From assembly GCA_038851565.1 (NCBI GenBank), contig JAWCKV010000009.1, positions 1-25,844 on the forward strand: a stretch of DNA of 25,844 bases, written 5' to 3'. Every line of letters starts with the position of its first letter. Position 1 is the first letter of the stretch. Position numbers and translations under genes: made by a program. The notes under the pieces were generated by a model that was given only the letters and a program-made list of their open reading frames with translations, did no database searches and had not been told where the DNA came from. This DNA comes from Candidatus Hadarchaeales archaeon. GTDB lineage: Archaea > Hadarchaeota > Hadarchaeia > Hadarchaeales > Hadarchaeaceae. Positions 706-23,624 of the stretch are shown here, in pieces.

Positions 706-714
706 GTGATCACC

Positions 715-1497: not shown

Positions 1498-1511
1498 TTA
1501 AAATTGAAACC

Positions 1512-4287: not shown

Positions 4288-4325
4288 TCCATGCCCACTC
4301 TTACTGCCACAGGGGAGTTAAAATC

Positions 4326-4904: not shown

Positions 4905-4983
4905 CTTTCACCATGCCCCATAGTCGTTATGCCGGATATGTATTCCCACCGAAACGCTTATGTGTTGCTGTAAATGAGGGAAG

Positions 4984-5928: not shown

Positions 5929-5983
5929 GCTCCGATTTCCCTCACATTTATTTATCCGGATGATGATGGCAAATGGTGGGCTG

Positions 5984-7159
5984 TTGAAGGTAGTCCTGGC
6001 GTTCAGCGGAGGACTCGACACCCTTGTGGCGATAAAGCTCCTCCAGGAGAAATACGGAGCTGACGTCATCACCCTCTCGGTCGATGTTGGACAGCCTCCT
6101 GAGAGGATGAAGGCGGCTGAAAAGAAGGCCAAGCAGGTTGGGGTGGTGAAGCACGTCAACGTGGATGCCAAGAGGGATTTCGTGGAGAGGTACATCTTCC
6201 CCAGCATACGCGCCAACGGATCATATGAAGGCTATCCTCTCTCCACGGCGCTGGCGAGGTATCCAATAGCAGAAAAGCTTGTTGAGGTCGCCAAGAAGGA
6301 GGGAGCGGAGGCCGTGGCCCATGGCTGCACGGGCAAGGGAAATGACCAGTTCAGATTCGACATCACGGTGAGCACCCTCGCCCCAGATCTCAGGATAATC
6401 GCCCCGATAAGGGAGCTGAATCTCGATAGGACCTGGGAGCGAAAATACGCCAAGGAGAAGGGAATACCACTAGATCCCTGGGGCAAATACAGCATAGATG
6501 AAAACCTGTGGGGACGCTCGATAGAGGGCTCGGACCTTGAGGATCCCCTCCGCCCTCCTTCCGAGGAGATATACAGCTGGACTCGCCCTCCCGAGAGAGC
6601 AATACCTGGCGGCAGGCGCCTGAGGATCTCATTCAAGGAGGGAATACCCGTGGCGCTGGATGGGAGGAACATGGACGGAGTGAGGCTCATCACGACGCTT
6701 AACAGGATTGCGGGGGAAAACGGGGTGGGAAGGATAGAGATGATAGAGGACAGGATACTCGGGATGAAGGCGAGGGAGAACTATGAGGCTCCCGCGGCAA
6801 CCGTCCTCCTCGCTGCGCACCAAGGGCTCGAGCAGCTTGTGCTGACCAAGGACGAGCTGAGCTTCAAAAGGTTTGTGGACAACAGATGGTCGGAGCTCGT
6901 ATATGCCGGGCTGTGGTTCGACCCCCTCAGGGAGGATCTCGATGCCTTTATCTCGGCAACTCAGAGGAGAGTCACGGGCGAGGTGCTCGTTGAACTCTGC
7001 CGCGGCCACTGCCGGGTACTGGCCAGAAAATCCCAGTACTCAATATACGAGAGGAAACTGGCCACGTTTGAGGAATCGGAGTTGGACCAGAGGGAAACCG
7101 TGGGAGTGCTGAAGCTTCACGGGCTCCAGGGCAAAATAGCAAGGAGGAGGATGGTTTGA
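5984..7159 (+). CDS. argG: Argininosuccinate synthase (canonical copy)
   Basis: VVLAFSGGLDT, YPLSTALAR, HGCTGKGNDQFRF, YSIDENLWGRSIEG, IEDRILGMKARENYEAP. TTG 5984 has GGTGG upstream; alternative ATG starts at 5960-5966. Confidence 0.95.
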   Translation: MKVVLAFSGGLDTLVAIKLLQEKYGADVITLSVDVGQPPERMKAAEKKAKQVGVVKHVNVDAKRDFVERYIFPSIRANGSYEGYPLSTALARYPIAEKLVEVAKKEGAEAVAHGCTGKGNDQFRFDITVSTLAPDLRIIAPIRELNLDRTWERKYAKEKGIPLDPWGKYSIDENLWGRSIEGSDLEDPLRPPSEEIYSWTRPPERAIPGGRRLRISFKEGIPVALDGRNMDGVRLITTLNRIAGENGVGRIEMIEDRILGMKARENYEAPAATVLLAAHQGLEQLVLTKDELSFKRFVDNRWSELVYAGLWFDPLREDLDAFISATQRRVTGEVLVELCRGHCRVLARKSQYSIYERKLATFEESELDQRETVGVLKLHGLQGKIARRRMV

Positions 7160-8178
7160 TAAGGGTATCGGTGGTTGGGGCCTCCGGCTACACGGCGGCT
7201 GAGCTGTTCAGAATCCTCTTGACCCACAAGGAAGCAAGGCTTGCGGGAGCATACGCGCTGAAAAACGCGGGAAGGATGGTGAGCGAGGTTCACCCGAGCC
7301 TGAGGGGCATAGTGGACATGAGGATAGAGGATGCTGACTATGACCGCATAGCGGGGGAATCAGATCTGGTCTTTGCGGCCGTGCCACACAAGGTTCCAAT
7401 GAGCTTTGTGCCCCGCCTGCTCAAACACGGCGTGCGCGTGGTGGACCTGAGCGCAGACTACAGGTTTGAGGATGTCTCGGTCTATGAGAGGTACTATGTC
7501 AAACACGAAAGCCCGGACGTAAAGGGCGTCTATGGCCTGCCTGAGCTCCACAGGGAAAAAATAAGAAAGGCCCAGCTGGTGGCCAATCCCGGCTGTTTCC
7601 CCACGGCGGCTGTCCTCTCGCTTGCACCTCTGGTCAAGAAGGGCATCATGGACCTTGACCATATAGTTGTGGACGCAAAGACCGGCACCTCAGGAGCGGG
7701 CGCCACGCCAACCGAGGCCACACACCATCCCACGATAGGCGCGAGCGTGAGGGCATATTCCGCGCTTAGCCACCGGCATGCTCCGGAGATCGATCAGGAG
7801 CTGTCCAAGCTTGCGGGAAGGCCTGTGAAGGTCTCCTTCGTCCCCCACCTGGTACCCATCGTGAGGGGAATACTCTCAACCGCGCACGTGTTCCTCAACA
7901 AAAACCTGGAGAGAGAGGACCTTCTAGAGGAGTACAGAAAGTTCTATGGGGCAGAGCCCTTCGTCAGGGTGGTGGAGGGACTGCCCGAGATCAACTACGT
8001 TCTCGGCTCAAACTACTGCGACATAGGCGTTGCGGTCGACGGCGAGGGCAGGGCAGCTGTGGTAGCTGCAATAGACAACCTTGTCAAGGGGGCTTCGGGC
8101 CAGGCCGTGCAGAACATGAACATAATGTTTGGAATCGATGAAACCGAGGGGCTGAAGGCCGCGCCCCTGCGTCCATGA
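7156..8178 (+). CDS. argC: N-acetyl-gamma-glutamyl-phosphate reductase
   Basis: GASGYTA, DLSADYR, YGLPEL, VANPGCFPT, GTSGAG, IDNLVKGASGQAVQNMN; TTGA overlap with argG. Confidence 0.96.
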   Translation: MIRVSVVGASGYTAAELFRILLTHKEARLAGAYALKNAGRMVSEVHPSLRGIVDMRIEDADYDRIAGESDLVFAAVPHKVPMSFVPRLLKHGVRVVDLSADYRFEDVSVYERYYVKHESPDVKGVYGLPELHREKIRKAQLVANPGCFPTAAVLSLAPLVKKGIMDLDHIVVDAKTGTSGAGATPTEATHHPTIGASVRAYSALSHRHAPEIDQELSKLAGRPVKVSFVPHLVPIVRGILSTAHVFLNKNLEREDLLEEYRKFYGAEPFVRVVEGLPEINYVLGSNYCDIGVAVDGEGRAAVVAAIDNLVKGASGQAVQNMNIMFGIDETEGLKAAPLRP

Positions 8179-8205
8179 AATGCCGATGAGGGAAGTCGAT
8201 CTCAC

Positions 8206-9438
8206 ATGATCACCGTGCTCGAAGGTGGGATAACACTGGTGCCCGGCTTTCTTGCCTCGGGAGTCAGGGCAGGCATAAAAAAGAGGGGCCTGGACCTCAT
8301 GCTCATAGCATGCGAGGATGGACCTGTTGCCGCAGCGGGCGCGTTCACGGGGAACCTCGTGAAGGGCGCACCGGTGGTTGTGACTAGGGGCCACGTGAAA
8401 AATGGATCAATAGGGGCGATAGTTGCAAATTCCGGCATTTCCAACGCGTACACTGGAAAGAGGGGATTGAAGGACGCGCGGAGGATGTGCGCCCTCACAG
8501 CCGAGCTCATGGGTCTCAAACCTGCGCAGGTTGCGGTTGCATCCACCGGGATAATTGGGGTCTATCTGCCGATGAAGAAGATAGAGAAGGGAATAAGGGC
8601 GGCTGCCAAGGAGCTCTCAAATTCAAGAGAGGCCGCGCTGAACGCGGCCAGGGCCATAATGACCACTGACACGTTTCCGAAGGAAGTCGCCATCAGGGTG
8701 GATCTTGAGGACGGAAAATCCGCCACCATAGCTGGCATAGCAAAGGGAGCTGGGATGATAAAGCCGGACCTGAAGACGGCCACCATGCTGAGCTTCGTGG
8801 TCACCGACGTCAACATATCGCCAGACGCGCTCAGGGCGGCGCTTGGCGAGGCGGTCGATCAGAGCTTCAACATGCTCAACATCGACAATGACATGAGCAC
8901 CAGCGACATGGTCATTGTGCTTGCAAACGGCAGGGCTGGCAACCAAAGGATCACACCAGATCGCCCGGACAGGCAGTTCCAGGCCGGCCTCAATTACGTG
9001 CTGCGCGAGCTAGCCTGGATGATAGCCAAGGACGGGGAGGGAGCAACGCACCTGATAGAGGTCAAAGTGAAGGGTGCAAGGAGCGAGGGGGATGCGAGGA
9101 AGGCTGCCAGGGCCGTGGTCGGTTCGAACCTGGTAAAGGCAGCGGTGTTTGGAAAGGATCCAAACTGGGGAAGGGTGATCTCCGCCCTCGGTAGCTCAGG
9201 CGCCTCCTTCAAGCCGGAGAAGATCAGCCTCGAGCTGGCGAGCGAGAGGGGAAGGGTTGATCTGGTCAGGAGAGGGAAGCCGGCTGGCAGGAATGCTCTC
9301 CAAAAGGCCAGGGACATAATGAGGAGCAAGGAGATAGAGATACACGTGGACCTGGGAGCTGGAAAACACAGCGCGACGGCGTGGGGGTGCGACCTCACAT
9401 ATGACTACGTGAGGATCAACTCCCGGTACACAACCTGA
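8206..9438 (+). CDS. argJ: Ornithine acetyltransferase / glutamate N-acetyltransferase
   Basis: VASTGIIG, AIMTTDTFPK, AKGAGMI.P, ATML autocleavage site, KDGEGAT, DPNWGR, WGCDLTYDYVRINSRYTT. Confidence 0.96.
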   Translation: MITVLEGGITLVPGFLASGVRAGIKKRGLDLMLIACEDGPVAAAGAFTGNLVKGAPVVVTRGHVKNGSIGAIVANSGISNAYTGKRGLKDARRMCALTAELMGLKPAQVAVASTGIIGVYLPMKKIEKGIRAAAKELSNSREAALNAARAIMTTDTFPKEVAIRVDLEDGKSATIAGIAKGAGMIKPDLKTATMLSFVVTDVNISPDALRAALGEAVDQSFNMLNIDNDMSTSDMVIVLANGRAGNQRITPDRPDRQFQAGLNYVLRELAWMIAKDGEGATHLIEVKVKGARSEGDARKAARAVVGSNLVKAAVFGKDPNWGRVISALGSSGASFKPEKISLELASERGRVDLVRRGKPAGRNALQKARDIMRSKEIEIHVDLGAGKHSATAWGCDLTYDYVRINSRYTT

Positions 9439-9454
9439 TTGAAACCGAACTCAA

Positions 9455-9470
9455 CCAAATGTTTTTAATC
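9455..9470 (+). promoter_or_regulatory. Possible internal promoter for argB-D-F (or T-run terminator of argG-C-J)
   Basis: CCAAATGTTTTTAATC in the 73-nt argJ-argB gap; GGAGG SD before ATG 9512. Confidence 0.4.
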
Positions 9471-9511
9471 GGCACCCACCACTTTAGCGTTGAGAGGAAG
9501 GAGGCCGCGGG

Positions 9512-10402
9512 ATGGAAGAACGTGCAAAGGTGATGCTCGAGGCCCTGCCGTATCTCCAGGAATTCCACGGAAGGACCATAGTGATAAAGATAGGGGGAAG
9601 CGTCCTCGGCAACGAGGAAATGCTCGATTCCCTGCTGAGGGACGTGGTCCTCCTCAACCTCTTCGGCATGAGGGTGGTCCTCGTTCACGGCGGAGGTCCG
9701 GAGATAAGCGAGGAGATGAAGAAGATGAACATCAAGCCGAAGTTCGTCGAGGGGCTCAGGGTAACCGACGAGAGGACCATAGAGATAATTCACGAGCAGC
9801 TTGCAGGAAAGATAAACAAGCAGCTGGTGCTCGGCATAAACCAGCAGGGCGGGAAGGCCTTCGGGGTCTCAGGCGTGGACGGCAACCTGATAAGGGCGAG
9901 GAAGCTCATCTACAGGACCACCACCAGCAAGGGAAAGGAGATAGAGGTCGACCTGGGGTTCGTGGGCGAGGTTGAGAAGGTGGACCCCACCATCCTGAAC
10001 AACCTGATAAAGAGCGGATGCATTCCAGTTGTCGCCCCCATAGGAGTCGACGGGGAGGGACACAGCCTGAACATAAACGCAGACACCGCAGCGGCGGAGA
10101 TTGCCATAGCCATGAAGGCTAAGAAGCTCATCCTTCTTACCGATGTTTCCGGAGTTCTGAGGGATCCCACAAACGAGTCCACCCTGATATCATCGCTCAC
10201 AGTTGAGGAGGCGCAGAAGCTCATTCAGGAAGGGGTGATAAAGAAGGGCATGATACCCAAGGTGGAAGCCTGCCTCAGGGCAATTCAGGGGGGAGTGGAG
10301 AAGGCCCACATCCTCAAGGGAACCCAGCCCCACGTGCTGCTCCTGGAAATACTCACGAAGACCGGCGTTGGCACGATGATAGAGAAGACGCCGCCCTCCT
10401 GA
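9512..10402 (+). CDS. argB: Acetylglutamate kinase
   Basis: EALPYL, VIKIGG, VHGGGPEI, GLRVTD, NINADTAA, GMIPKV. Confidence 0.96.
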   Translation: MEERAKVMLEALPYLQEFHGRTIVIKIGGSVLGNEEMLDSLLRDVVLLNLFGMRVVLVHGGGPEISEEMKKMNIKPKFVEGLRVTDERTIEIIHEQLAGKINKQLVLGINQQGGKAFGVSGVDGNLIRARKLIYRTTTSKGKEIEVDLGFVGEVEKVDPTILNNLIKSGCIPVVAPIGVDGEGHSLNINADTAAAEIAIAMKAKKLILLTDVSGVLRDPTNESTLISSLTVEEAQKLIQEGVIKKGMIPKVEACLRAIQGGVEKAHILKGTQPHVLLLEILTKTGVGTMIEKTPPS

Positions 10403-10413
10403 GGTGCCATCGC

Positions 10414-11601
10414 TTGAGCAGCGGAACCGTGGAGATGGCCGATCGCTACCTGGCGAACACTTACGGGCGCCAGCGGATAGTTCCGGTGCGCGGCCGCGGC
10501 ATGTTCCTCTGGGATGAAGACGGCAGACGATACATCGACTTTGTGGGTGGGATAGCCGTATGCGTTCTCGGGCATTGCCATCCGGATGTCGCCCGGGCCA
10601 TATCAGCCCAGGCCAGAAAGCTCGTGCACGTGTCAAACCTCTACTACATACCCCAGCAGGCAGAGCTGGCAAGGCTCCTGTCTACCATCTGCCCGAGGCC
10701 TATCTCAAAATTCTTCTTCTGCAACTCAGGAACCGAGGCCATAGAGGGCTCCTTCAAGCTTGCCTTCAAACACAGCAAGAGGAAACGGGTGGTCGCGATG
10801 GAGGGCTCTTTTCACGGGAGAACTTCAGCGGCGGTGGGTGCCACGTGGACCCCAAAATACAGGGAACCCTTCGGCGATCTCATACCCAAGATCTTCACAT
10901 TTGTCCCCTACGATGATCTGGACGCCGCAAGGCAAGCTGTGGATGAGAACACGTCCGCCGTGATCGTGGAGCCCGTGCAGGGGGAAGGGGGAGTGAATGT
11001 TCCATCGGAGGATTACCTCCAGGGATTGCGGGAGATATGCGATGAGAAGGGCGCCCTGCTGATATGCGATGAGGTCCAGAGCGGAATGGGGAGAACCGGA
11101 AGGTGGTTCGCCTGCCAGCACTGGGGCGTGCAGCCGGACATTATCGCCATGGCGAAAGGACTGGGGGGAGGATTTCCAATCGGGTGCTTCGGCTCCACTC
11201 CAGAGATCATGAATTCGTTCTCTCCTGGAGATCATGCATCGACATTCGGCGGAAACCCGCTCGCCTGCGCCGCGGCGATAGCCACCGTTAAAGCCATGAA
11301 AAGGCTGAATATCCCGGGGAGGGCAAATAGGATGGGAAAGTATTTCAGGGGGAGGCTGGAGGAACTAAGAAGGCATGCATCGGTGAGGGATGTGAGGGGG
11401 CTTGGCCTGCTGCTCGGGATGGAGATGAAAAACGGGAAAATCGCGAGGAAGGTCGTGGAGAGGGCGGCGGAGGGGGGCTTTCTCATCAACTGCACGGCCG
11501 AGAAGGTTCTCAGATTCGTGCCGCCACTGATAGTCGAGAAAAAACAAATAGACCAACTGGTTGAGGCGCTTGACGGGATACTAATGAGGGTGGGAGCCTG
11601 A
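10414..11601 (+). CDS. argD: Acetylornithine aminotransferase
   Basis: DFVGGIAV..LGHCHP, NSGTEAIE, FHGRT, EPVQGEGG, DEVQSGMGRTG, AKGLGGG, STFGGNPLA; TTG start with GAGGTG SD. Confidence 0.95.
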   Translation: MSSGTVEMADRYLANTYGRQRIVPVRGRGMFLWDEDGRRYIDFVGGIAVCVLGHCHPDVARAISAQARKLVHVSNLYYIPQQAELARLLSTICPRPISKFFFCNSGTEAIEGSFKLAFKHSKRKRVVAMEGSFHGRTSAAVGATWTPKYREPFGDLIPKIFTFVPYDDLDAARQAVDENTSAVIVEPVQGEGGVNVPSEDYLQGLREICDEKGALLICDEVQSGMGRTGRWFACQHWGVQPDIIAMAKGLGGGFPIGCFGSTPEIMNSFSPGDHASTFGGNPLACAAAIATVKAMKRLNIPGRANRMGKYFRGRLEELRRHASVRDVRGLGLLLGMEMKNGKIARKVVERAAEGGFLINCTAEKVLRFVPPLIVEKKQIDQLVEALDGILMRVGA

Positions 11602-12533
11602 AGCATGTACTTACGATTCAAGACCTGATGGGAGAGGAGATAAATGCCCTCATAAGGAGGGCGAGATCGCTCAAGAGGGAGCTGAAGGCGGGCAGAACAA
11701 GAAATGACCTTAAGGGAAGAACCCTCGCAATGATATTCTCCAAGCCCTCCACGCGCACAAGGGTGAGCTTCGAGGTTGCGATGACTCAGCTGGGAGGACA
11801 CGCAATATACTTGGGGTGGAATGATCTCCAGCTGGGGAGGGGGGAAACAATAGCCGATACGGCCAGGACCCTTTCCAGATACGTTGACTGTGTGGCAGCC
11901 AGGCTCTTCAAACACCGGGAGATTGAGGAGCTGGCTGAGCACTCAACGGTTCCGGTGATAAACGCATTGACGGATCTTCATCACCCATGCCAGACGCTTG
12001 CAGACCTCATGACCATAGAAGAGCACAAGGGGAAACTCAAGGATGTCAAGGTGGCGTGGGTGGGGGATGGAAACAACGTTTGCAACTCCATTCTCCTCGG
12101 CTGCACACTTGTGGGCTCGGACATATCAGTTGCCTGTCCAAAGGGATATGAACCGCCCTCACACATCGTCTCGACCGCCATGGATAACTCTAAGAGGAGC
12201 GGAAGCAGCGTGAAGATAACGAACGAACCCCTCGTTGCGGTAAGGGACGCGGATGTAGTCTACACCGACGTCTTCGTCTCCATGGGCATGGAGGCTGAGA
12301 GGGAGAGGAGGATGCAGGACTTTAGGGGATTTCAGGTGACCCCGGAGCTCATGAATGCCGCAGAGGAGGACGCGATATTCATGCACTGCCTGCCGGCCAG
12401 GCGGGGCGAGGAGGTGAGCGCTGAGGTCATCGACGGTCGCTGGTCGGTCGTCTGGGATCAGGCTGAGAACAGACTCCACGCCCAGAAGGCGCTCCTGCTG
12501 AAGCTAATTGGGAGAGCCACTAAAGCCGCTTGA
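11598..12533 (+). CDS. argF: Ornithine carbamoyltransferase
   Basis: STRTRVSFE, HPCQ, GDGNNV, VSMG, HCLPA. Homology extends upstream of ATG 11628 to a CTG at 11598 (KHVLTIQDL), taken here as the probable start. Confidence 0.95.
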   Translation: MKHVLTIQDLMGEEINALIRRARSLKRELKAGRTRNDLKGRTLAMIFSKPSTRTRVSFEVAMTQLGGHAIYLGWNDLQLGRGETIADTARTLSRYVDCVAARLFKHREIEELAEHSTVPVINALTDLHHPCQTLADLMTIEEHKGKLKDVKVAWVGDGNNVCNSILLGCTLVGSDISVACPKGYEPPSHIVSTAMDNSKRSGSSVKITNEPLVAVRDADVVYTDVFVSMGMEAERERRMQDFRGFQVTPELMNAAEEDAIFMHCLPARRGEEVSAEVIDGRWSVVWDQAENRLHAQKALLLKLIGRATKAA

Positions 12534-13872
12534 GCCTTTCAAAGACCGCAACGAGGCGTCTCTCCTCCGCCAGCAGGGATTTCTTCTCGGAGGAGATCTG
12601 CTTCATCAGCTCCTCTATGCGCAGGTTACCCGGCGCCCCAACATGTTTCTTTGACATTATGTTCTTCACCGGATCTTCCATCTCCAGCCTGTCGAGCTCC
12701 GAGGCCACCTTCCTGTAGGCGTCCCTGAACGGCATCTTCTCTTCCACAACAAGCCTGAGCGCCCGGTCTGCCGCGAAGAGCTCCGGGGTGAATGACCGAA
12801 TGAGGGTCTCCCGGTTCACCTTCAGCTTTTCGAATATCATCCTCATCACCTTCATGCAGTCCTCGGTCACCCTCAGCGCCTCCATCAGCGGCCTCTTTGT
12901 CTCCTGAAAGTCCCTGTTGTAGCCGGAGGGCAGGTTTCTTATGATGAGCAGCAGATGCAGGAGTCTGGCGATGTTCCCTGCCGATCTCGCCCTCACGAGC
13001 TCAAGGGGACAGGGATTCAGCTTCTGGGGCATTATGCTCGATCCGGGGCAGTACTCCCTCGGAAGGGAGAAATATCCGAGCTCAGGTATGCTGAAGAATA
13101 TGAGATCATTGGCCAGCTTTGACAGGTCCTCCGTGATCTGCACGAGCGCGAAAACTATCATCGCCTCGATCTTGCCCCTGCTGTTGTTCGCATAGAGGAC
13201 GTTGTTCTGCACCTTCTCGAATCCCAGGAGGTCGCTCACCATCTGCCTGTCTATGGGCAGGGGGACACCGTAGCTGGCAGCGGATCCGAGCGGGCACTGG
13301 TTGTTCAGGGAGTAAACGGCCTTTATGAGCCTCAGATCATCCATCAGTGACTCAGCAAACGCCCCGGCCCAGAGTCCCACGGAGGAGGGCATGGCGCGCT
13401 GCGTGTGCGTCCTTCCCGGCATGGGGACATCCCTGTTCTCCGAGGCGAACTTCGCGAGCGTCCCGGCCAGCTCCAGCAGCTCGCGCCATATGACAAGCAA
13501 CTCTTTCCTGGAATAGATCCTGATGTCAAGCAGAACCTGATCGTTTCTGGATCTGGCCGTGTGTATCTTTTTTCCCAGACCACCCAGCTTCTTCGTGAGG
13601 TGATTCTCGATGGCGGTGTGCACATCCTCATCCTCCCTCCTTATCTCAAATTTCCCCCTTTCGGCGCCAGACAGTATCTCCAGGAGAGCCCTCTTGAGCC
13701 TCAAGAACTCCTCCCTGCCCAGCACGCCTATCTTGAAGAGCATGCGGGCATGGGCTATGCTTCCGTATACGTCGGCTTCAATGAGTTCACGGTCAAGGAT
13801 GTGGTCATCGCCTACCGTGAACTCCTCCATGAACTCATCAAGATTGTATCCCTTCTCCCAGAGCTTTGGCAT
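12520..13872 (-). CDS. argH: Argininosuccinate lyase
   Basis: EDVH, HTARSRNDQV, MPGRTHTQRA, GSSIMPQKLNP, LPSGYNRDFQETK, PFRDAY. Confidence 0.93.
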   Translation of the reverse strand: MPKLWEKGYNLDEFMEEFTVGDDHILDRELIEADVYGSIAHARMLFKIGVLGREEFLRLKRALLEILSGAERGKFEIRREDEDVHTAIENHLTKKLGGLGKKIHTARSRNDQVLLDIRIYSRKELLVIWRELLELAGTLAKFASENRDVPMPGRTHTQRAMPSSVGLWAGAFAESLMDDLRLIKAVYSLNNQCPLGSAASYGVPLPIDRQMVSDLLGFEKVQNNVLYANNSRGKIEAMIVFALVQITEDLSKLANDLIFFSIPELGYFSLPREYCPGSSIMPQKLNPCPLELVRARSAGNIARLLHLLLIIRNLPSGYNRDFQETKRPLMEALRVTEDCMKVMRMIFEKLKVNRETLIRSFTPELFAADRALRLVVEEKMPFRDAYRKVASELDRLEMEDPVKNIMSKKHVGAPGNLRIEELMKQISSEKKSLLAEERRLVAVFERLKRL

Positions 13873-13873
13873 C

Positions 13874-15106
13874 TCACTTCACTCGTTTTCTCATTGCGAG
13901 TACCTGATAAATAAGACCACCTATGTGGGCAGCCCCCCTTGACATGCGCTGATCGAATCCCTTTGCCTTTATCGACCTGAGCTCGGGAGCGAAAAGCCCG
14001 GTGTTTGACCTTCTCCTCATTATCTCTATCGTTCCCTTGTACAGCTTTACCCTGTACTCCCCCTCCACATGCCTCTGTGATTCGTTTATGAAGGCCTCCA
14101 GCTCGTACCTCAGCGGGTGAAACGCCTGTCCGTGATACATCATGTAGGCCCACTTCTGGTCAACCATCTTCTTGAACATCAGCTCGTCCTTGGTGAGGCA
14201 GAACTGCTCGAGGTCCCTGTGAAGGGCCAGTATCACGTGCGCTGCTGGCGCCTCATAGATTTCCCTTGATTTCAGGTTCATTATTCCGTCCTCGAACATG
14301 TCTATCCTGCCGATGCCGTTCTCCCCTGCGATGTAGTTCAGGCGGTAGACTATGTCGAAGAGGGGAAGCCTTTCGCCGTTCAACTTAACCGGTACGCCCT
14401 CCTTGAATTCAATCTCCACCACGGTGGGCTCGTCCTTCGCCTTCTCCGGTGGCTTGAGCCACATCCATATGTCATCAGGCAGCTCCTGATCCAGGTCCAC
14501 GGCCCCGCTGGCTATAGATCTGCACCACAGCGTCTTGTCGTCCCCGCCGGTTATCGTCTGGACCATGGGCACGCCCCATGCCCTGCAGAGCTCCTCTTCC
14601 TCCCTCCTCGTGAGGTCGAAATCCCTCACAGGGACCAGTATCTCAAGGCCGGGCGCGAACATCGTGAAGACGTTGTGCATCCTGAACTGGTCATTGCCCT
14701 TTCCACTGCTCCCCTCCAGAAGCGCGTCGCATCCAAGCTCGACCGCCTTCTCCGCGACCTTCCTGGCTATCAGCTGCCTCGTCATAGATGTGGACACCGG
14801 ATAGCCCTCGTAGTCTGAGTTTGCCTTTATTGCCATCGCTATCCACTCATTCGCAAACTCCTCCCTCGCATCGATGAAGATGGGCTTTACCCCGAGCGCC
14901 TCCCCGTGCCTCCGCGCCACCTCGAGCTCCTGTTCGCCCTGCCCCACATCCACTGTTATGGGAACTATCTCCTCAGCCCTGTACTTGCGCTTCAGGAGCT
15001 CTATCCCCAGGCTGGAGTCGACCCCTCCTGAAAACGCACATGCGACCTTCCTGACCTTCGGCACAGGCGCGCTCTCGATTTTTCTTATGATTTCCTCGAC
15101 GCTCAT
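13874..15106 (-). CDS. argG: Argininosuccinate synthase paralog (divergent second copy)
   Basis: AFSGGVDSS, YPVSTS, GSSGKGNDQFR, KSREIYEAPAA; stop lies 1 nt before the argH ATG. Confidence 0.88.
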   Translation of the reverse strand: MSVEEIIRKIESAPVPKVRKVACAFSGGVDSSLGIELLKRKYRAEEIVPITVDVGQGEQELEVARRHGEALGVKPIFIDAREEFANEWIAMAIKANSDYEGYPVSTSMTRQLIARKVAEKAVELGCDALLEGSSGKGNDQFRMHNVFTMFAPGLEILVPVRDFDLTRREEEELCRAWGVPMVQTITGGDDKTLWCRSIASGAVDLDQELPDDIWMWLKPPEKAKDEPTVVEIEFKEGVPVKLNGERLPLFDIVYRLNYIAGENGIGRIDMFEDGIMNLKSREIYEAPAAHVILALHRDLEQFCLTKDELMFKKMVDQKWAYMMYHGQAFHPLRYELEAFINESQRHVEGEYRVKLYKGTIEIMRRRSNTGLFAPELRSIKAKGFDQRMSRGAAHIGGLIYQVLAMRKRVK

Positions 15107-15129: not shown

Positions 15130-15155
15130 GGTCATTTAAAAAGTTTTTTGGTCAT
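15130..15155. promoter_or_regulatory. Shared divergent promoter of argG2-argH and the regulator gene
   Basis: TTTAAAAAGTTTTT core (minus strand AAAAACTTTTTAAA = BRE+TATA-like), flanked by direct repeats GGTCAT at 15130-15135 and 15150-15155. Confidence 0.5.
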
Positions 15156-15180
15156 GAAGTTGATGAAATATGGTGATGGT

Positions 15181-15741
15181 TTGGCGCGCAGGGGACCTCT
15201 TCCACGTTTTGGCGACTTTCACGTCAGCAGGGCCCTGGAGCTCATTTCGCTCAACGGCAGGGTAAGCAGGGGGGAACTCTCCAGAAGACTGGGCATCGGA
15301 GAGGGCAGCATCAGGACAATACTGAAGAGGCTCAAGGAGAGGGGCCTGGTGAGATCGACCAGAGCGGGTCACTTCCTGACTGAAAAGGGGAAGAGGGCCC
15401 TCGGAAGGCCGGAAAAAACGGTTGAGGTCTCGGTTCCCGGGCTCACGGTCGGCAAGGCGAACGTGGCAACTGTCGTCAGGGGGGCAGCCCGTTTTGTACA
15501 CAGGGGAATTGAGCAGAGGGACGAGGCGATAAAGGTCGGGGCAAAGGGAGCAACGGTTCTCGTATGCATAGGGGGGAGGTTGCATTTTCCCGATCGGTTC
15601 ATGGAGGTGGGGCGCGAAGCCGAAGGAGAGCTCATGGAGAAGCTGGATGTCAGAGAGGGAGATGCGATCATCATAGGCACGGCAGATGATCTGAGGCTTG
15701 CCGAAGAAGGAGCCCGGGCAGCAGCCAGAACCTTGCTCTGA
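15181..15741 (+). CDS. Winged-HTH transcriptional regulator (DUF4443/DUF2111-like)
   Basis: SRGELSRRLGIGEGSIRTILKRLKERGLV HTH, C-terminal GIEQRDEAIKVGAKGATVL. TTG 15181 has GGTGA upstream; alternative starts 15148-15163. Confidence 0.8.
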   Translation: MARRGPLPRFGDFHVSRALELISLNGRVSRGELSRRLGIGEGSIRTILKRLKERGLVRSTRAGHFLTEKGKRALGRPEKTVEVSVPGLTVGKANVATVVRGAARFVHRGIEQRDEAIKVGAKGATVLVCIGGRLHFPDRFMEVGREAEGELMEKLDVREGDAIIIGTADDLRLAEEGARAAARTLL

Positions 15742-16155
15742 TCACCAGGAGATGTACTTTATCACCACGTTGTCCCCATCGTGGAGCTGGCATTCGCTCA
15801 TTCCGACGTTGGGCGCCTCTCCGTTCACCTCGAAGACGTATCCCTCATTTGACTCAAGCTCATCGCCCGCTATGGAGACCACGACCGAGGAACCAAAGCT
15901 CTCCCAAAACTTGGTCCTCGTGTCAGCCACCCTCAGAAGGGCGTCGAAGGCCGTCATGCCGTCTCTGATCGTCACGTCTCTCTCGATGACTCCGCTGCTC
16001 TTCGTCTCCACCCTCAGATGTATTGTGATCTCCCGTGTGGTTGCGTAGACGTCGGGTCCACCCCCACTGGCATACAAGCCCGCCGCAAAGCAAAGCACGC
16101 CAGCAACGATGATCAACCCTACGACCTCCGCCCAGATTTTCCTCAGCTCAATCAC
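15742..16155 (-). CDS. Membrane-anchored DUF4430-like (transcobalamin C-terminal-like) protein
   Basis: N-terminal TM anchor, then GMTAFDALL...V.SI.G...YVFEVNGEAPNVGMSECQLHDGDNVVIKY. True start may be CTG 16146. Confidence 0.75.
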   Translation of the reverse strand: MIELRKIWAEVVGLIIVAGVLCFAAGLYASGGGPDVYATTREITIHLRVETKSSGVIERDVTIRDGMTAFDALLRVADTRTKFWESFGSSVVVSIAGDELESNEGYVFEVNGEAPNVGMSECQLHDGDNVVIKYISW

Positions 16156-16810
16156 CTCCTGTTTTTTGTTTTTGATGAGAGAAGATTGATGCAGAGGCCC
16201 GGACTGGAACCGGTATCCTTATCATGATTCTACCCAATCCCACGAGGGGCGGGACGAAAAACAGCGATGTGAGATGGCGAAGGGTGAAAGGTATCTGCCC
16301 CAGCAGTGAGATCCAGATGGATGTCCCGGTGACGAGCGAGTGGCCGATGAGGCCCGTCCACACGTCATATATTATTATGGCCACAGCTGCCGTCAGAGTG
16401 GTTCGAAGCAGAAGCCTCGGGAGCCTGTCAAAGATTGAAACCCTTGATCTCATGGAAAAAAACCATACAAGGAGAAATCCAGACCAGCAGAAGGCGTGGA
16501 TCGGCAGGACCCCGTATGTGACAAACCAGACTATTAACGCGCTCATGACGGCCAAGGCACCGAAGTATCTCGTCACGATCCTCCATGCGCGTGAGGAGCC
16601 GCAGTAAAGGGAGAAGGAGCCCGTCACCACGAGGACGGGTATTATCCACTCGGTGTTCGGGAGAAAGTCCATACCGGCGAAAAACCTGTAGAGCGCAAAC
16701 AAAGCTATGAGAATGGCGCCCGTGAGGACAAAGAGCCTGTACCTCTTGGACAGCGTTTCATCTGGCGAGCTCCCCTCCCAGAGATGCCCGATCAGACCCC
16801 TGAACATCAT
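16148..16810 (-). CDS. ECF transporter S-component-like membrane protein, probably for cobalamin/corrinoid
   Basis: About six hydrophobic helices; LPNTEWIIP, IIYDVWTG, GQIPFTLRHL motifs; coupled to the DUF4430-like gene. ATG 16810 lies about 25 nt downstream of a TATA box (leaderless); the track's TTG 16834 abuts the TATA. Confidence 0.65.
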   Translation of the reverse strand: MMFRGLIGHLWEGSSPDETLSKRYRLFVLTGAILIALFALYRFFAGMDFLPNTEWIIPVLVVTGSFSLYCGSSRAWRIVTRYFGALAVMSALIVWFVTYGVLPIHAFCWSGFLLVWFFSMRSRVSIFDRLPRLLLRTTLTAAVAIIIYDVWTGLIGHSLVTGTSIWISLLGQIPFTLRHLTSLFFVPPLVGLGRIMIRIPVPVRASASIFSHQKQKTGGD

Positions 16811-16813
16811 CTC

Positions 16814-16832
16814 GTTGGATATATTATCCAAC
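16814..16832. promoter_or_regulatory. Perfect 8-3-8 palindrome, candidate repressor operator
   Basis: GTTGGATA-TAT-TATCCAAC, positioned between the TATA box and the start codon. Confidence 0.7.
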
Positions 16833-16834
16833 AA

Positions 16835-18045: not shown

Positions 18046-18067
18046 AGGGCCCCTTTTCATCTTTTTA
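18044..18067. terminator. Putative terminator between convergent genes
   Basis: AAAGGG-C-CCCTTT inverted repeat followed by T-runs (TTTTCATCTTTTT). Confidence 0.4.
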
Positions 18068-19199
18068 CAGGGCGTCCGCCTCTCATCACTATTCTATCAT
18101 CCACCAGAACTTCTCCGTTCCCCATGTCCTTTATCATGTCGAGGTGGCTTGAGGCCTTGTTTCTGCCGTGGTAGGCGCCCCGGTTGTTCCCTATCGCGAC
18201 GTGCACCGTGCCAAATATCTTCTCATCGATTATTATGCTACCTCCCGTGTACTTTGCTCCTGGATTCGTTCCAATTCCGAACTCCGCAATGCGATCCTTC
18301 TCACCCGTGTTCGCCCTCAAAAAGTTATCGAAGTTCCTTTCCCCGTCTTCAGCGGAGTATCTGCGTATCCTGCCATCCCTGAATGTCAGCTCCAGTCCCC
18401 TCACCTTGCCGAATCCCGGAATGGCTATCTCCTCGAAGGATATTGATCCATCCGCGCTCGTCTCTATTGGAGCCACGAACACCTCCCCTGCAGGAATGTT
18501 CACCCCGACATCCCCGCGTTTTAGGTCCTCATCAGATATCACCCCATCGTCGACAAGTATTGGCCTCCCGGTGATACGGAAGCTGAGGTCCGTGCCATCC
18601 TCGGCCATGATCCTCACAGTTCTCCCTCCCTCGAGCAGCGAGCGGTAAATTCTGCAGAGGCGGGCTACTTCCCCATAAAAGGTCCTCCTTATGCTGTCGA
18701 AAAATATGTCCCGAAACCTTCTGGTCCCACATCCGTAGGTCCTTGCTGCCCCCGGAACTGGCCACCCGAAATATGCCCACCTAACCTTTCTCCGGTCCAG
18801 TATGTCGTGCAGTTTTTCCCTTATCGGAGCCGTGAGCCTTATCCTTCCCTCAACGCCCTTCGCCCAGTTTGGATCGTCATCCTCGCCGATGAATATGCTC
18901 ACATCCGCCCGTTTTGCTATCGCTTCAGCAAAGGGGCTCATCTTTCTGAGAGAGCTCTCTGGCTTCAGAAGGTACCTCAGCCTTTCCCTTCCAGACGCAA
19001 AGCTGAGCAGGAGGGTGTGGGCTCCGGTCCTCCAGCACTCCTCCTCAACTGTAAACGCAAATCTCTCGCACGTGGGATCGGTACGGTTGTAGAGCATCCT
19101 CACAGCGTCGAAAGCCCCGCGCCTCAGCCCTATCCGCATGGACCTTCTCACGAAAGCCCTGGCGATCCTCCGCATCTCTCCCCGAGAGAGCTCCGCCAA
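18057..19199 (-). CDS. M29-family aminopeptidase (aminopeptidase T-like)
   Basis: NIPAGEVF, IAEFGIGTN, DEKIFGTVHVAIG, HLDMI metal-ligand motifs. Confidence 0.9.
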   Translation of the reverse strand: MAELSRGEMRRIARAFVRRSMRIGLRRGAFDAVRMLYNRTDPTCERFAFTVEEECWRTGAHTLLLSFASGRERLRYLLKPESSLRKMSPFAEAIAKRADVSIFIGEDDDPNWAKGVEGRIRLTAPIREKLHDILDRRKVRWAYFGWPVPGAARTYGCGTRRFRDIFFDSIRRTFYGEVARLCRIYRSLLEGGRTVRIMAEDGTDLSFRITGRPILVDDGVISDEDLKRGDVGVNIPAGEVFVAPIETSADGSISFEEIAIPGFGKVRGLELTFRDGRIRRYSAEDGERNFDNFLRANTGEKDRIAEFGIGTNPGAKYTGGSIIIDEKIFGTVHVAIGNNRGAYHGRNKASSHLDMIKDMGNGEVLVDDRIVMRGGRPVKR

Positions 19200-20027: not shown

Positions 20028-21044
20028 ATGAAAAAGATCGCTGTGGGGGGCGGGGAGATCTCAGTAAGCCCCCTTGCCTTCGAAAGCCTTGGAGTCAGGG
20101 GGATGTCCACCCTCGTGGAAACGCGAGACATCAGCGTTCTGATAGATCCGGGCTCTGCGCTTGGCCCCAGGTTCAACCTCATGCCCCATGAAAGGGAATA
20201 TGCCGCGCTGTCAGAGTCCAGGGAGAGAATGCTCGAGGCGGCGGGGAGCGCTGACCTGATCACCGTGAGCCACTATCATTTTGACCACTATGTGCCAGGA
20301 TTTGAGGAGTGGACCTGGATATGGAGCTCCCCGGAAATCGCGGAGCGGATCTACCGCGGGAAGAGGATGCTCGTCAAGGACATACGCTCCGAGATAAACA
20401 TCAGCCAGAGAAAGAGGGGGTTCATGTTCCAAAAGTTCGTCACCAGTTTGGCGCAGGACATCGAGCCGGCCGACGGAAGGGAGTTCAGGTTCGGAGGCAC
20501 TCTCCTGCGTTTTTCGCCTCCAGCCTCCCACGGCCCGCCGGGAACCCAGCTGGGCCGGGTCCTCATGGTGAGCATAAGGTGTGGCGAAACGACCTTCCTG
20601 CACGCCTCGGACGTTCAGGGGCCCATTGACAGGGCGGCGCTTGACTTCATCCTGAGGGAAAAGCCAGACATGGCAGTAATAGGAGGACCCCCGCTATACC
20701 TCAGGGGATTCAGGGTGGGAGAGGAGGAGCTGGGATCCGCAATTGAGAACATGAAGGTCCTGGCCAGAACCATTCCGCTCATTGTTATAGACCACCACCT
20801 TCTCAGGACCGAAGAGTACGTTGACTACATGGGACCTGTGGTCAAAGAGGCCAGATCTCACGACCACACGATCACCACGGCCTCAGAGATGGTGGGAAAA
20901 AGGCCAGCGCTCCTTGAGGCGAACAGAAAGCAGCTTTACGCCAGGGAGCCGATGGAAAGCGGGAGCATGAAGCACATCAGGGAACTCATGATAAGGCTTG
21001 GCGCTACATCCTCTCAGGAGCGGGTATCCCCAGAAGGTCCATGA
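20028..21044 (+). CDS. UPF0282-family metallo-beta-lactamase fold hydrolase
   Basis: PLAFESLGVRGM, IDPGSALGPRF, SHYHFDH, HASDVQGP, GGPPLYL, IDHHLLR. Confidence 0.88.
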   Translation: MKKIAVGGGEISVSPLAFESLGVRGMSTLVETRDISVLIDPGSALGPRFNLMPHEREYAALSESRERMLEAAGSADLITVSHYHFDHYVPGFEEWTWIWSSPEIAERIYRGKRMLVKDIRSEINISQRKRGFMFQKFVTSLAQDIEPADGREFRFGGTLLRFSPPASHGPPGTQLGRVLMVSIRCGETTFLHASDVQGPIDRAALDFILREKPDMAVIGGPPLYLRGFRVGEEELGSAIENMKVLARTIPLIVIDHHLLRTEEYVDYMGPVVKEARSHDHTITTASEMVGKRPALLEANRKQLYAREPMESGSMKHIRELMIRLGATSSQERVSPEGP

Positions 21045-22863
21045 CGTTCCTCAACACCATCCTGGTGCAGCTGACCAGCCTGAGCCTGGTCTCCCTGAGC
21101 TCCCTGGTTTCGGCCGTAAGCACCGGCGCGGCCTCATAGAACCTGTTAAACGCAAATGCCAGGTCGGAGGCATATATCGCCAGAAGATGCGGTCCGAGCG
21201 TCCTTCCGGCCTCATCGATCACCTGGGGAAACCTCGCGAGGAGCTTTATGAGGGTCCTCTCCTCGGGCAGGTCGAGTTTCACCATTTTTGACATCCCGCT
21301 CCTCCCGGCCTTCCTGATTATGCTGCAAGCCCTGGCATATGAGTACTGGATTGCAGGGCCGCTGTTCCTCTCAAAGTTCAGGGCCTCCTCCCACCTGAAG
21401 GTTATCCTCTTCTCGGGTGAGGTGCTGAGGAGGGAGTACCTGACAGCCCCAACCCCTACCAGCTCGGCTATTTTCCGCTTGAAGCCCTCCGGGGCCTCGG
21501 GGCTGTGCTCCTCAACCGCAGCCCTTGCTCTCGCCACGGCCTCCTCGAGCGCATCGTCCACAGAGAACCCAACCCATGTACCCTTCCGGCCGGAGAACTT
21601 CCCGCTTGGAAGCCACACGTGCTCATATGCAAGGTGAAGGGAATTCCTCGATTCCTCCTCATATCCCAGAATTCTGAGGGCGGCGGAAACGACCTGCTGT
21701 GGAAAGCGCTGCTCGGCCCCAACCACATTTATCACCATCTTTGCTCCTCCGAACCTTTCTGAGGCCTTTCCGCGCGGGGAGGTGGTGAATGTCCTTCTGC
21801 CATCACCTCTGACCGAGTGGATCCTCATCCTGGGCGATGCCCTGGTTTTTCCGAACTTCCACATCTGGTAGGCGATGTCCCGCGCGGTGTAAACAGTGGT
21901 TCCGTCGGACCTGACCAGCACCTTGTCCTCCAGCCCAACGTCACCAAGCCTGAGGACCAGCGCGCCTGAGTTCTCCCCAGTTCCCTCAACCAGCCTCCCA
22001 GATCTCCTCAGCGATTCGATGACCTCCTCCACCGCTCCCGATCTCACCAGATCGCTTTCCCACACGAGGAGGTCGTAGACGACGCCCAGCCTCTCTGCGG
22101 TCTCCAGGTTCGCCCTCACGCATTTTTCCGCTATCCTCCTTGCCTCAATGCACCACCTCCCAATCCCGCTCTCCAGCCCCCTGAGTATCCCATCCACCTC
22201 CCCCTCCAGCTTGGGATCGCTGCCGAGCATCTGGTGCATCTGGGAGTAGAGCAGGCCGAGAACGTGATCGAACTTGGCTCTCGGTTTCCTCTTTATGCGC
22301 CTGAAGGCGAGCACTGTCTCGGCCATCTGCCTCCCCATGTCATCTATGTAGTTGTGAACCTCCACCGTGTGGCCGAGCGCCTTCATTATCCTCGCAACCG
22401 TGTCGCCTATCACCGCATTTCTTCCGTGCCCTATGTGAAGCGGCTTGGTGGGATTGACGCTCGTGTGCTCTATTATGACCTTGCCCTTTTTCTCCGTCCT
22501 TGCCCTCCCATAGGCCTCCCTCATCTTCTCCACGGCCGTCAGGGTTATCTCGCCAAGCGCGTGGAGATCCAAGAAAAAGTTCAGATAGCCGTTCACCGGC
22601 TCAACGCGCAATATGAGGCCGCCAGTGGCTATCCTCTCCGCCAACCTCTTCGCAATCTCTGCCGGAGGCATTTTCAGGTCCTTGGCCATCTCAAAGCAGA
22701 CTGTTGACGCGATGTCCCCGAGCCCCGGATCCGGCGGATCCTCAAGGGTTTCGATGACATCCCTGGGGGAACTCCACCCGATGCCCCGCAGCGCATCTGC
22801 AATGGCATCTGAAACTGCGCTCTTGACAGACCCCCAGGGATCTGGATCCACTTTCATCCTCAC
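21004..22863 (-). CDS. argS: Arginine--tRNA ligase
   Basis: EHTSVNPTKPLHIGHGRN (HIGH), RSDGTTVYTARDIAY, KFSGRKG, GPAIQYSYAR, C-terminal APERM; GTG start with GGTGA SD. Confidence 0.96.
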   Translation of the reverse strand: MRMKVDPDPWGSVKSAVSDAIADALRGIGWSSPRDVIETLEDPPDPGLGDIASTVCFEMAKDLKMPPAEIAKRLAERIATGGLILRVEPVNGYLNFFLDLHALGEITLTAVEKMREAYGRARTEKKGKVIIEHTSVNPTKPLHIGHGRNAVIGDTVARIMKALGHTVEVHNYIDDMGRQMAETVLAFRRIKRKPRAKFDHVLGLLYSQMHQMLGSDPKLEGEVDGILRGLESGIGRWCIEARRIAEKCVRANLETAERLGVVYDLLVWESDLVRSGAVEEVIESLRRSGRLVEGTGENSGALVLRLGDVGLEDKVLVRSDGTTVYTARDIAYQMWKFGKTRASPRMRIHSVRGDGRRTFTTSPRGKASERFGGAKMVINVVGAEQRFPQQVVSAALRILGYEEESRNSLHLAYEHVWLPSGKFSGRKGTWVGFSVDDALEEAVARARAAVEEHSPEAPEGFKRKIAELVGVGAVRYSLLSTSPEKRITFRWEEALNFERNSGPAIQYSYARACSIIRKAGRSGMSKMVKLDLPEERTLIKLLARFPQVIDEAGRTLGPHLLAIYASDLAFAFNRFYEAAPVLTAETRELRETRLRLVSCTRMVLRNVMDLLGIPAPERM

Positions 22864-23312: not shown

Positions 23313-23624
23313 TTGGAGGAGGAGCCCTCAATCAGCGAGATGCCCAGGCTCTACGATGTGTTCGAGCAGGTGAAGGTGAAGTCCGTCCGTGCAGTGACGA
23401 AGATCAGGGTGCCGGTTGACCTCAAGGCGGTGGCCGACAGGCTGCCGAAGGTCAGGAGGATCAGGACATCGAACAAAAGCGTGATGAAGTTTCAGCTCAG
23501 GCGCGGGTGCTATCTGCTCCTTTTTCCAACCGGATATGTTGAAGTCCACGCGCCGGACGAGGGAAGCGTCAGGGAGGTGCTGATCGCCTTCAGGGACGAG
23601 ATGTACAAGGGCGGGCTCCTATGA
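23313..23624 (+). CDS. Hypothetical protein resembling a single TBP (TATA-binding protein) repeat
   Basis: TTG start with GGTGA SD (23304-23308); VKVKSVRAVTKIRVPVDLKAVADRL and LLLFPTGYVEV parallel the TBP repeat pattern; ATGA overlap with the next gene. Confidence 0.65.
   Translation: MEEEPSISEMPRLYDVFEQVKVKSVRAVTKIRVPVDLKAVADRLPKVRRIRTSNKSVMKFQLRRGCYLLLFPTGYVEVHAPDEGSVREVLIAFRDEMYKGGLL

Follow-up and report, generated by a model that had tools for sequence, protein, structure and literature searches.

A divergent argininosuccinate synthase paralog coupled to a single argininosuccinate lyase: a possible route to citrulline without ornithine carbamoyltransferase

Why does an archaeal genome carry two argininosuccinate synthase (ASS) genes of the ArgG family against a single homologue of argininosuccinate lyase, ArgH? 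The question is raised by the window analyzed here, a stretch of 25,844 nucleotides from Candidatus Hadarchaeales archaeon (assembly GCA_038851565.1, contig JAWCKV010000009.1), which is contig C9 of a genome (G000) of 823 kb in 50 contigs, 86.7% complete. An initial annotation had described the open reading frame (ORF) at 13874..15106 as an ArgG paralog with a remodelled pocket that is coupled to ArgH and may use another substrate. The ORF is real, lies on the minus strand, and encodes a divergent ASS-family ligase of 410 amino acids (P0001), here called ArgG2, with the Pfam domains Arginosuc_synth and Arginosuc_syn_C. The canonical enzyme, ArgG1, is encoded at 5960..7159 (plus strand), and the only ArgH homologue, a divergent one encoded by argH′ (12520..13872, minus strand), lies 1 nt downstream of argG2. 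From comparative genomics, we consider the case evenly balanced that ArgG2 is a neofunctionalised ATP- and aspartate-using ligase of the ASS family that forms a module with the single ArgH and provides citrulline with its ureido group independently of both ornithine carbamoyltransferase (OTC) and carbamoyl phosphate.

ArgG2 and ArgG1 are 41% identical over 383 residues. Residue numbers of human ASS1 are placed on ArgG2 by motif offsets. In the argG2 translation and the clade alignment, the PP-loop AFSGGVDSS (residues 24-32; 15011..15037, minus strand), which fits the pattern SGGxD[ST][ST], is retained, as are GKGNDQxR and the Tyr/Ser/Glu/Tyr residues of the amino-acid end (Y102/S197/E272/Y284 in ArgG2; Y87/S189/E270/Y282 in the human enzyme). 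Residues conserved in both the ArgG2 and canonical clades include those of the PP-loop (S26, G27, G28, and D30), R95, G117, K121, N123, D124, R127, D182, S189, E270, and Y282, and the aspartate-ligand positions T119/N123/D124 read S/N/D in ArgG2. The two proteins differ in three motifs, which are HGCTGKGND, YSIDENLWGRSIEG, and IEDR in ArgG1. The first corresponds in ArgG2 to EGSSGKGND (residues 131-139; 14690..14716, minus strand), with H116E and T119S and with K121/N123/D124 kept. The second corresponds to GGDDKTLWCRSIAS (residues 187-200; 14507..14548, minus strand), with S180G, E183K, N184T, and E191A and with D182 and S189 kept, and the third to FEDG (residues 271-274; 14285..14296, minus strand), with R272G and with E270 kept; the assignments for the first and third motifs also come from the translation and the clade alignment. 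All of these motifs had been quoted in the initial annotation; they were found in the two proteins, and those of ArgG2 hardly vary among its 120 best relatives. Six changes (S180G, E183K, N184T, E191A, R272G, and H116E) are fixed in the ArgG2 clade, including the G/T/A/G at S180/N184/E191/R272 that had been singled out from the single sequence. In all, 29 positions distinguish the clade from the canonical ArgG encoded in the same genomes, and the separation is 100% versus 100% for S180G, N184T, E191A, R272G, and H116E. Separately, three cysteines (C126, C174, and C195; Ala, Ala, and Gly in canonical ArgG) are fixed in the narrow ArgG2 clade but are not conserved across the wider one. For this reason, and since two of them resemble buried Ala-to-Cys replacements, a Fe-S cluster on these residues, as in LarE/TtuA, was rejected.

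A mutational scan of human ASS1 in yeast indicates what such changes cost the canonical enzyme. In the portion of that study and its supplement S4 available to us (PMC13289927), S180G (relative growth, 0.027) and E191A (0.008) were null, R272G (0.48) and T119S (0.26) were hypomorphic, and N184T (0.97) and H116D/Q (0.87/1.0) were tolerated. Either S180G or E191A alone would thus kill a canonical enzyme, and the residues that ASS1 needs at S180, E191, and R272 are G, A, and G in ArgG2. The same portion of the study counts S180, with D182, at the ATP site and E191 as an added citrulline ligand, which corrects the earlier assignment of S180 as a citrulline ligand. For N184, the difference between the clades stands, but the weight given to it does not, given the growth of N184T.

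These values bear on the plainest alternative, in which ArgG2 is an isoenzyme that converts citrulline to argininosuccinate, carries compensating changes, and differs from ArgG1 in kinetics or regulation. Effects of single residues in the human protein need not transfer, and general family profiles place ArgG2 in the ASS family. Pfam PF00764 and PF20979 matched it with 148.4 and 224 bits (gathering cut-offs, 27), and the equivalogs TIGR00032 and NF001770 matched with 355 and 350 bits (cut-offs, 268 and 334, respectively). Proteins of the clade carry the name argininosuccinate synthase in public records, and a protein-atlas look-up of ArgG2 returned generic ASS clusters only. The AlphaFold2 (AF2) model (predicted local distance difference test [pLDDT], 83.6) has the ASS fold, and its top Foldseek matches were ASS (E 6e-29; template modelling [TM] score, 0.81). 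The archaeal equivalog NF010392 scored 400 bits on ArgG2, below its cut-off of 512; ArgG1 reached 565 bits on this model and 513 bits on TIGR00032.

Further evidence on the isoenzyme comes from the distribution of ArgG2. Among 7893 relatives, the 120 best are 66-92% identical to ArgG2, all with the same three motifs. In genome records (56-87% identity), the clade was found in Hadarchaeota, Latescibacterota, Planctomycetota including Brocadiia, Poribacteria, Dependentiae, Armatimonadota (Zipacnadia), and Chloroflexota. Identity within the clade is 56-92% overall, with bacterial members at 56-77% to the archaeal ArgG2, and the canonical ArgG proteins of carrier genomes are only 39-51% identical to ArgG1. 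In a tree of 80 sequences, the ArgG2 clade and three distant members lay behind one branch with 100% support in the Shimodaira-Hasegawa-like approximate likelihood ratio test (SH-aLRT). Internal branches of the clade were short, archaeal sequences were nested among bacterial ones, and ArgG1 grouped with other Hadarchaeota ArgG. By these comparisons, ArgG2 forms a separate clade under strong constraint.

Other Hadarchaeota carry further ArgG types. Families f4 and f5 have a second ArgG, one of the more distant relatives that accompany the clade, which is 48-50% identical to ArgG2 and is encoded directly after their argH (e.g., L105, G087:C3:240000-247000, ORF 4069-5250). It shares G180, G/A191, and G272 and keeps H116 and N184, with the other ArgG2 changes absent, and has the appearance of an older or intermediate branch of an ArgG2 superclade. 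In about 20 Hadarchaeota, the sole ArgG is of a third type, which shares 31-35% identity with ArgG2 and about 40% with ArgG1 (e.g., G032:C25:435-1451).

Whether the clade ever serves as a genome's only ArgG had been proposed as a check on its function. The answer was sought in 51 carriers of ArgG2: 25 from genome records, 25 further Chloroflexota, and G000. Canonical ArgG was present alongside ArgG2 in 50 (24/25, 25/25, and G000), with scores of at least 423 bits in the 24 from genome records. The only carrier without it (G021) is a fragmented metagenome-assembled genome (MAG), so ArgG2 is the sole ArgG in at most 1/51, and this check does not refute the proposal of a separate function. A single ArgH was found in 49 carriers (23/25, 25/25, and G000), and by coordinates argH adjoins argG2 in 43 of the 51; together with the 1-nt gap in the window (junction TGA-G-ATG), this bears out the proposed coupling to ArgH. 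The operon order in Chloroflexota is argG2-argH-argG1, and a Dependentiae genome of 1.0 Mb has the row argR, substrate-binding protein gene, argG1, argG2, argH′, permease, ATPase. The nearest solved relatives of this binding protein are Arg, Gln, and Lys-Arg-Orn binders, a match that does not distinguish ornithine from citrulline. The only conserved neighbours of argG2 are argH and argG1 or other arg genes; other bacterial neighbours (GFO/IDH/MocA, xylose-isomerase-like, GNAT, phosphoenolpyruvate carboxykinase, and NadB-like) were variable and were treated as noise. Two isoenzymes in one operon, and in genomes as small as 0.8-1.0 Mb, would be unlikely, and an isoenzyme would leave it unexplained that native ArgH was lost and native ArgG1 never, as well as the missing OTC and carbamoyl phosphate synthetase (CPS) described below. 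In view of this and of the null phenotypes of S180G and E191A, we regard a plain isoenzyme as very unlikely; on the same comparisons, ArgG2 is most likely not interchangeable with ArgG1.

The ArgH homologue in the module is itself unusual. ArgH′ scored 324 bits on TIGR00838 (cut-off, 279.5), aligned to model positions 11-392 only, and the ASL_C2 Pfam domain was not detected in it. The catalytic motifs SRND, TH, and GSSxMPQK are kept, the C-terminal domain has a deletion of about 32 residues, an N-terminal motif is altered, and D-D stands in place of S28-S29. Most carrier ArgH proteins are of this divergent type, with about 300-370 bits on TIGR00838. ArgH′ belongs to a distinct, widespread clade (57-80% identity) with members in Latescibacterota, Planctomycetota, Methanofastidiosa, Woesearchaeota, and others, marked by N-terminal KLWxKGY and FTVGxDxxLD and by AMPSS in place of AQP.

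Comparison within Hadarchaeota suggested how the pair arrived. ArgG2 was present at 80% identity or more in 6 of 66 Hadarchaeota genomes (genera g1 and g2), and ArgH′ at 70% or more in exactly those six. Other Hadarchaeota have one ArgH at 31-40% identity, usually encoded just downstream of their ArgG. In G032, a non-carrier of the same genus, the order is argG-argH-argC-J-B-D-F, followed by a homologue of the window ORF at 16148-16834. In the window, argC-argJ-argB-argD-argF (7156..12533, plus strand; assigned by Pfam/NCBIfam and by synteny with G032 and the non-carrier G056) lie downstream of argG1, no argH remains at the native position, and argG2 and argH′ are found after argF instead, with argF and argH′ convergent and their ends overlapping by 14 nt. 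The empty slot next to a kept ArgG1 indicates that ArgH′ could replace ArgH and that ArgG2 did not replace ArgG1. By the sequence relationships, Hadarchaeota took argG2 together with argH′ from donors that were bacteria-like, and their native ArgG1 was retained.

Such tight linkage could also mean that ArgG2 is a non-catalytic or regulatory partner of ArgG1 or ArgH, acting in a heteromer, as a channelling scaffold, or as a sensor. In Chloroflexota and Dependentiae argG2 lies in one operon with argH and argG1, and ArgG2 is very highly conserved with residues essential in ASS1 replaced. A loop of the neighbouring subunit completes the ASS active site, according to the part of the ASS1 study at hand (PMC13289927), and natural canonical-type ArgG-ArgH fusions exist. 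However, the PP-loop and the Asp and ATP ligands are invariant, as for an enzyme, and a partner role leaves the loss of OTC or of CPS and carbamate kinase unexplained. A search of longer proteins gave 29 matches, all at most 40% identical to ArgG2; these were canonical ArgG-ArgH fusions, and none was specific to ArgG2. An ArgG1-ArgG2 heteromer is unlikely, since the argG2-argH′ pair came from bacteria-like donors and sits beside a native ArgG1 of 41% identity. A complex prediction for ArgG2 and ArgH′ gave a score of 0.00, which counts neither for nor against binding. Overall, we judge a partner role to be improbable. Two long proteins were set aside: a 759-amino-acid "double ArgG" (P0393) is an exact internal duplication of canonical ArgG and an assembly artefact, and an ArgG2 frame that runs into a glycogen-debranching enzyme (GDE_N/GDE_C; L008:54-3242, 1062 amino acids) comes from one bacterial MAG, probably reflects a chimera or loss of the stop codon, and was not used as evidence.

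If ArgG2 is an enzyme distinct from ArgG1, which step might it serve? The genes that carriers lack offer a clue. With OTC called by TIGR00658 at E 1e-60 or better, 34 of 49 carriers had OTC and 15 did not; counting G000 (present) and the Dependentiae genome (absent), 16 of 51 were without it. Each of the 15 OTC-less carriers had a single gene of the carbamoyltransferase fold, which was aspartate carbamoyltransferase (ATCase) in 15/15 (TIGR00670, 279-375 bits; cut-off, 237), and all 15 had ArgC, canonical ArgG, and ArgH. The OTC-less bacterial carriers G216, G328, and G005 have CPS. In the Dependentiae genome, no OTC/ATCase fold, ArgJ, ArgB, ArgC, CPS, or carbamate kinase was found, and argG1, argG2, and argH′ are kept. 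In OTC-less G013 (L023), the ATCase is fused to a PyrI-like domain and is encoded immediately upstream of the ArgG2-like gene; in OTC-less G017 (C63), the ATCase gene is about 3 kb from the ArgG2-ArgH pair.

The association was compared with non-carriers in a Chloroflexota sample of 401 genomes (requested completeness, at least 90%), in which 27 genomes carried ArgG2, 8 of them without OTC. Seventy-two non-carriers of the sample, picked by handle number and including one flagged unpublished (G116), served as controls. OTC was present in 64; the 8 without OTC, plus G128, whose OTC-family match of 254 bits is below the cut-off, were all without ArgG. ArgG without OTC was therefore seen in 8/27 carriers versus 0/72 non-carriers (Fisher p 1.3e-5, a value that overstates the association because related genomes are not independent).

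In Hadarchaeota, an OTC match was found in 65/66 genomes, carriers included, and the genes missing from the carriers tested were those that supply carbamoyl phosphate. The CPS domain was absent in 5/5 carriers tested (G000, G072, G033, G028, and G030), and carbamate kinase was absent in 6/6 (G000, G072, G033, G028, G029, and G030). When the CPS of G032 and the carbamate kinase of G056 were searched against G000 by tblastn, only an unrelated amidotransferase domain and ArgB matched. The tested non-carriers each had a carbamoyl-phosphate source: CPS in G031 and G032, both of the same genus, and carbamate kinase in G056, encoded after argF. Within the genus, carbamate kinase was found in 0/5 genomes, carriers or not, so the contrast between carriers and non-carriers there is seen for CPS alone. 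The G000 assembly, at its 86.7% completeness, has OTC on C9 and an ATCase-like gene on C36.

Four observations (ArgG1 is always kept, one ArgH is shared, OTC is dispensable where CPS is present, and CPS and carbamate kinase are dispensable where OTC is present) would be explained jointly, along with a minimal genome in which just argG1, argG2, and argH are retained, by synthesis of citrulline from ornithine through ArgG2 and ArgH with no use of carbamoyl phosphate. On these gene distributions, we slightly favour the view that the ArgG2-ArgH module offers some way around the OTC/carbamoyl-phosphate step.

How might an ASS-family enzyme achieve this? The δ-amino group of ornithine would carry CO2 as a carbamate, and ArgG2 would adenylate this ornithine carbamate as ArgG1 adenylates the ureido oxygen. 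Attack of aspartate on the adenylate would then give a urea-bridged ornithine-CO-aspartate, from which ArgH would remove fumarate to leave citrulline. ArgG1 and the same ArgH would turn citrulline into arginine, so that ArgH would be used twice, like PurB in purine synthesis. In genomes without CPS or carbamate kinase, such as G000, reverse OTC could supply carbamoyl phosphate for pyrimidines. In the pocket, an anionic group instead of the ureido NH2 would suit the loss of the acidic E191 and the gain of K at 183. We infer ornithine carbamate as the substrate and a double role of ArgH from these patterns, and the exact ornithine-carbamate chemistry is offered as a tentative possibility. Somewhat more doubtful is the full statement that ArgG2 and ArgH together form a "citrulline synthase" (ornithine + CO2 + aspartate + ATP → citrulline + fumarate + AMP + PPi), with both terminal guanidino nitrogens derived from aspartate and reverse OTC as the sole source of carbamoyl phosphate in those Hadarchaeota that have neither CPS nor carbamate kinase.

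The initial annotation had suggested an aspartate-dependent ligase for a different substrate, with ArgH freeing fumarate. Comparative genomics supports that part of the proposal; the substrates homocitrulline and an unrelated amidine are disfavoured. Because the gene stays in arginine metabolism and tracks the loss of OTC or of carbamoyl-phosphate synthesis, a substrate of the carboxylate or carbamate type on ornithine is preferred. Aspartate-dependent amination outside arginine synthesis (of homocitrulline, an N-acyl-citrulline, or an amide or amidine precursor), with ArgH in a moonlighting role, could nevertheless use the wider pocket that small residues at 180, 191, and 272 leave by the amino-acid end. 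ASS-like enzymes with other chemistry do exist, such as ArtA (PDB 9LEH/9LEI), as judged from its structure titles and a reference listed in PMC13060819. Against such a role, the conserved neighbours are arginine genes only, the minimal Dependentiae genome keeps argG2 with only argG1, argH′, argR, and an amino-acid transporter, and the OTC/CPS pattern would go unexplained. We consider it quite improbable.

A different chemistry within arginine synthesis also has to be weighed. ArgG2 could be a synthase with swapped substrates that adenylates the ureido oxygen of N-carbamoyl-aspartate; attack by the δ-amine of ornithine would then yield argininosuccinate directly, for cleavage by any ArgH. The product would be the canonical one, which accounts both for the sufficiency of one ArgH and for the occurrence of either ArgH type beside ArgG2, and it explains the single ArgH better than the carbamate route does. 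This chemistry also bypasses OTC, the ligands for Asp, ATP, and the amino-acid end are kept in ArgG2, and the ATCase genes of G013 and G017 lie near the ArgG2 gene as described above. However, ArgG1 would be superfluous, yet all 15 OTC-less carriers keep it, and carbamoyl phosphate would be needed, yet CPS and carbamate kinase are absent in 5/5 Hadarchaeota carriers tested. Further, no ATCase was found in the Dependentiae carrier, and since the ureido NH2 remains, the loss of E191 would be unexplained. We regard swapped substrates as unlikely.

Several observations weigh against an OTC-free route to citrulline through ornithine carbamate. Six carriers (G013, G107, G216, G264, G328, and G422) have an ordinary full-length ArgH (516-591 bits), which points to argininosuccinate, or something very close to it, as the product of ArgG2. 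OTC is kept in 35 of 51 carriers, G000 included, so ArgG2 is not simply a substitute for OTC. S180, a residue of the α-phosphate/ATP site in the consulted part of PMC13289927, is lost, and this could mean weak or lost adenylation; ArgH, for its part, would have to cleave a ureido-succinate. The AF2 model of ArgG2 is unreliable in the remodelled segments (residues 186-190 and 197-201, both with pLDDT below 50, and 272-285). The evidence is correlation across genomes that are mostly MAGs and, being related, are not independent; a completeness of at least 90% was requested for the Chloroflexota sample alone, and the Chloroflexota controls G112-G165 were counted as non-carriers from their numbering and not from a listed row. 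The contrast in CPS and carbamate kinase is between 5-6 carriers and 3 non-carriers, all 75-95% complete. G087 (95% complete), which has the 48%-identical relative of ArgG2, is also without a CPS domain; carbamate kinase was not searched there.

The surroundings of argG2 in the window were surveyed as well. Upstream, at 15136-16834 (minus strand), lie three small co-oriented ORFs of 149 amino acids (no family), 137 amino acids (DUF4430), and 228 amino acids (no family). The last of these (16148-16834) has a homologue that adjoins argF in the non-carrier G032, and the small-ORF neighbourhood is not kept in a sister genome (L013). At 2-3722 (plus strand), a cluster encodes a CBS-domain protein, a NIL-ferredoxin, ThiS-like and ThiF-like proteins, and a pyridoxal phosphate-dependent enzyme of the SepSecS/SepCysS family; it looks like archaeal sulfur transfer or homocysteine/cysteine synthesis. 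A HcyBio and NIL-ferredoxin pair also adjoins argG2-argH′ in a Planctomycetota locus (L021). Two genes of M29-family aminopeptidases (18057-19199, minus strand; 23621-24565, plus strand) and one for arginyl-tRNA synthetase (21004-22863, minus strand) lie a few kilobases from the arg genes. Window DNA was matched in hot-spring metagenomes, and one metatranscriptome contig was identical to argG2 over 276 bases (14419-14694), a weak hint of expression, since DNA can occur in such libraries.

Among known systems, canonical ASS (ArgG/ASS1, EC 6.3.4.5; 1J1Z, 1KP3, 2NZ2, and 4U7J) is the closest to ArgG2, which has the same fold, both Pfam domains, the PP-loop, and the ligands for ATP, aspartate, and the amino-acid end; TM-scores of the AF2 model to solved ASS structures are 0.77-0.81. 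ArgG2 differs from it in the six fixed changes, its own clade, its linkage to argH, and the absence of OTC or of CPS and carbamate kinase from carriers. It also falls outside the NCBIfam family NF038212, "argininosuccinate synthase-related protein" (197.5 bits; cut-off, 425). The nitrile synthetase ArtA, known here by the titles of its structure entries, combines the ASS fold with a changed substrate and is 24% identical to ArgG2 in a fold alignment; unlike ArgG2, it is part of natural-product synthesis and is not linked to ArgH. The reaction logic proposed for ArgG2 and ArgH is that of PurC and PurB, in which aspartate is joined to a carboxyl group at the expense of ATP, the release of fumarate then leaves an amide nitrogen, and one lyase serves two steps; the fold of PurC differs. 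Adenylation of the CO2 carbamate of an amino-acid amine is carried out by TsaC/Sua5 (YrdC family), the threonylcarbamoyl-AMP synthase, whose fold is unrelated to that of ArgG2 and whose carbamoyl group ends up on tRNA. In one locus (L028), a YrdC-family gene is found upstream of the ArgG2 gene, possibly by chance. OTC (ArgF/ArgI) with CPS or carbamate kinase is the step that ArgG2-ArgH would replace, and the two have no relation in sequence or mechanism.

To our knowledge, a single solution has so far been described for the conversion of ornithine to citrulline, namely a carbamoyltransferase that draws on carbamoyl phosphate. A literature search of sources other than subscription journals, in which a description may exist, found no paper on the ArgG2 clade or on an OTC-independent route. 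The conserved two-gene module, present in at least six phyla, fits genomes without the OTC step or without a source of carbamoyl phosphate. If an OTC-free citrulline route through ArgG2 and ArgH is correct, it would close a recurrent pathway hole in genome-based predictions of auxotrophy and would add a third aspartate-to-fumarate nitrogen transfer with a shared lyase. It would also avoid heat-labile carbamoyl phosphate, in line with the hot-spring occurrence of the window DNA, and the name argininosuccinate synthase would be wrong for thousands of database entries. Should the module leave this gap unfilled, the strict pattern of ArgG1, ArgG2, and a single ArgH still wants an explanation. On the comparisons made here, ArgG2 is probably a new functional variant within the ASS family and a link missing so far in arginine/carbamoyl metabolism.

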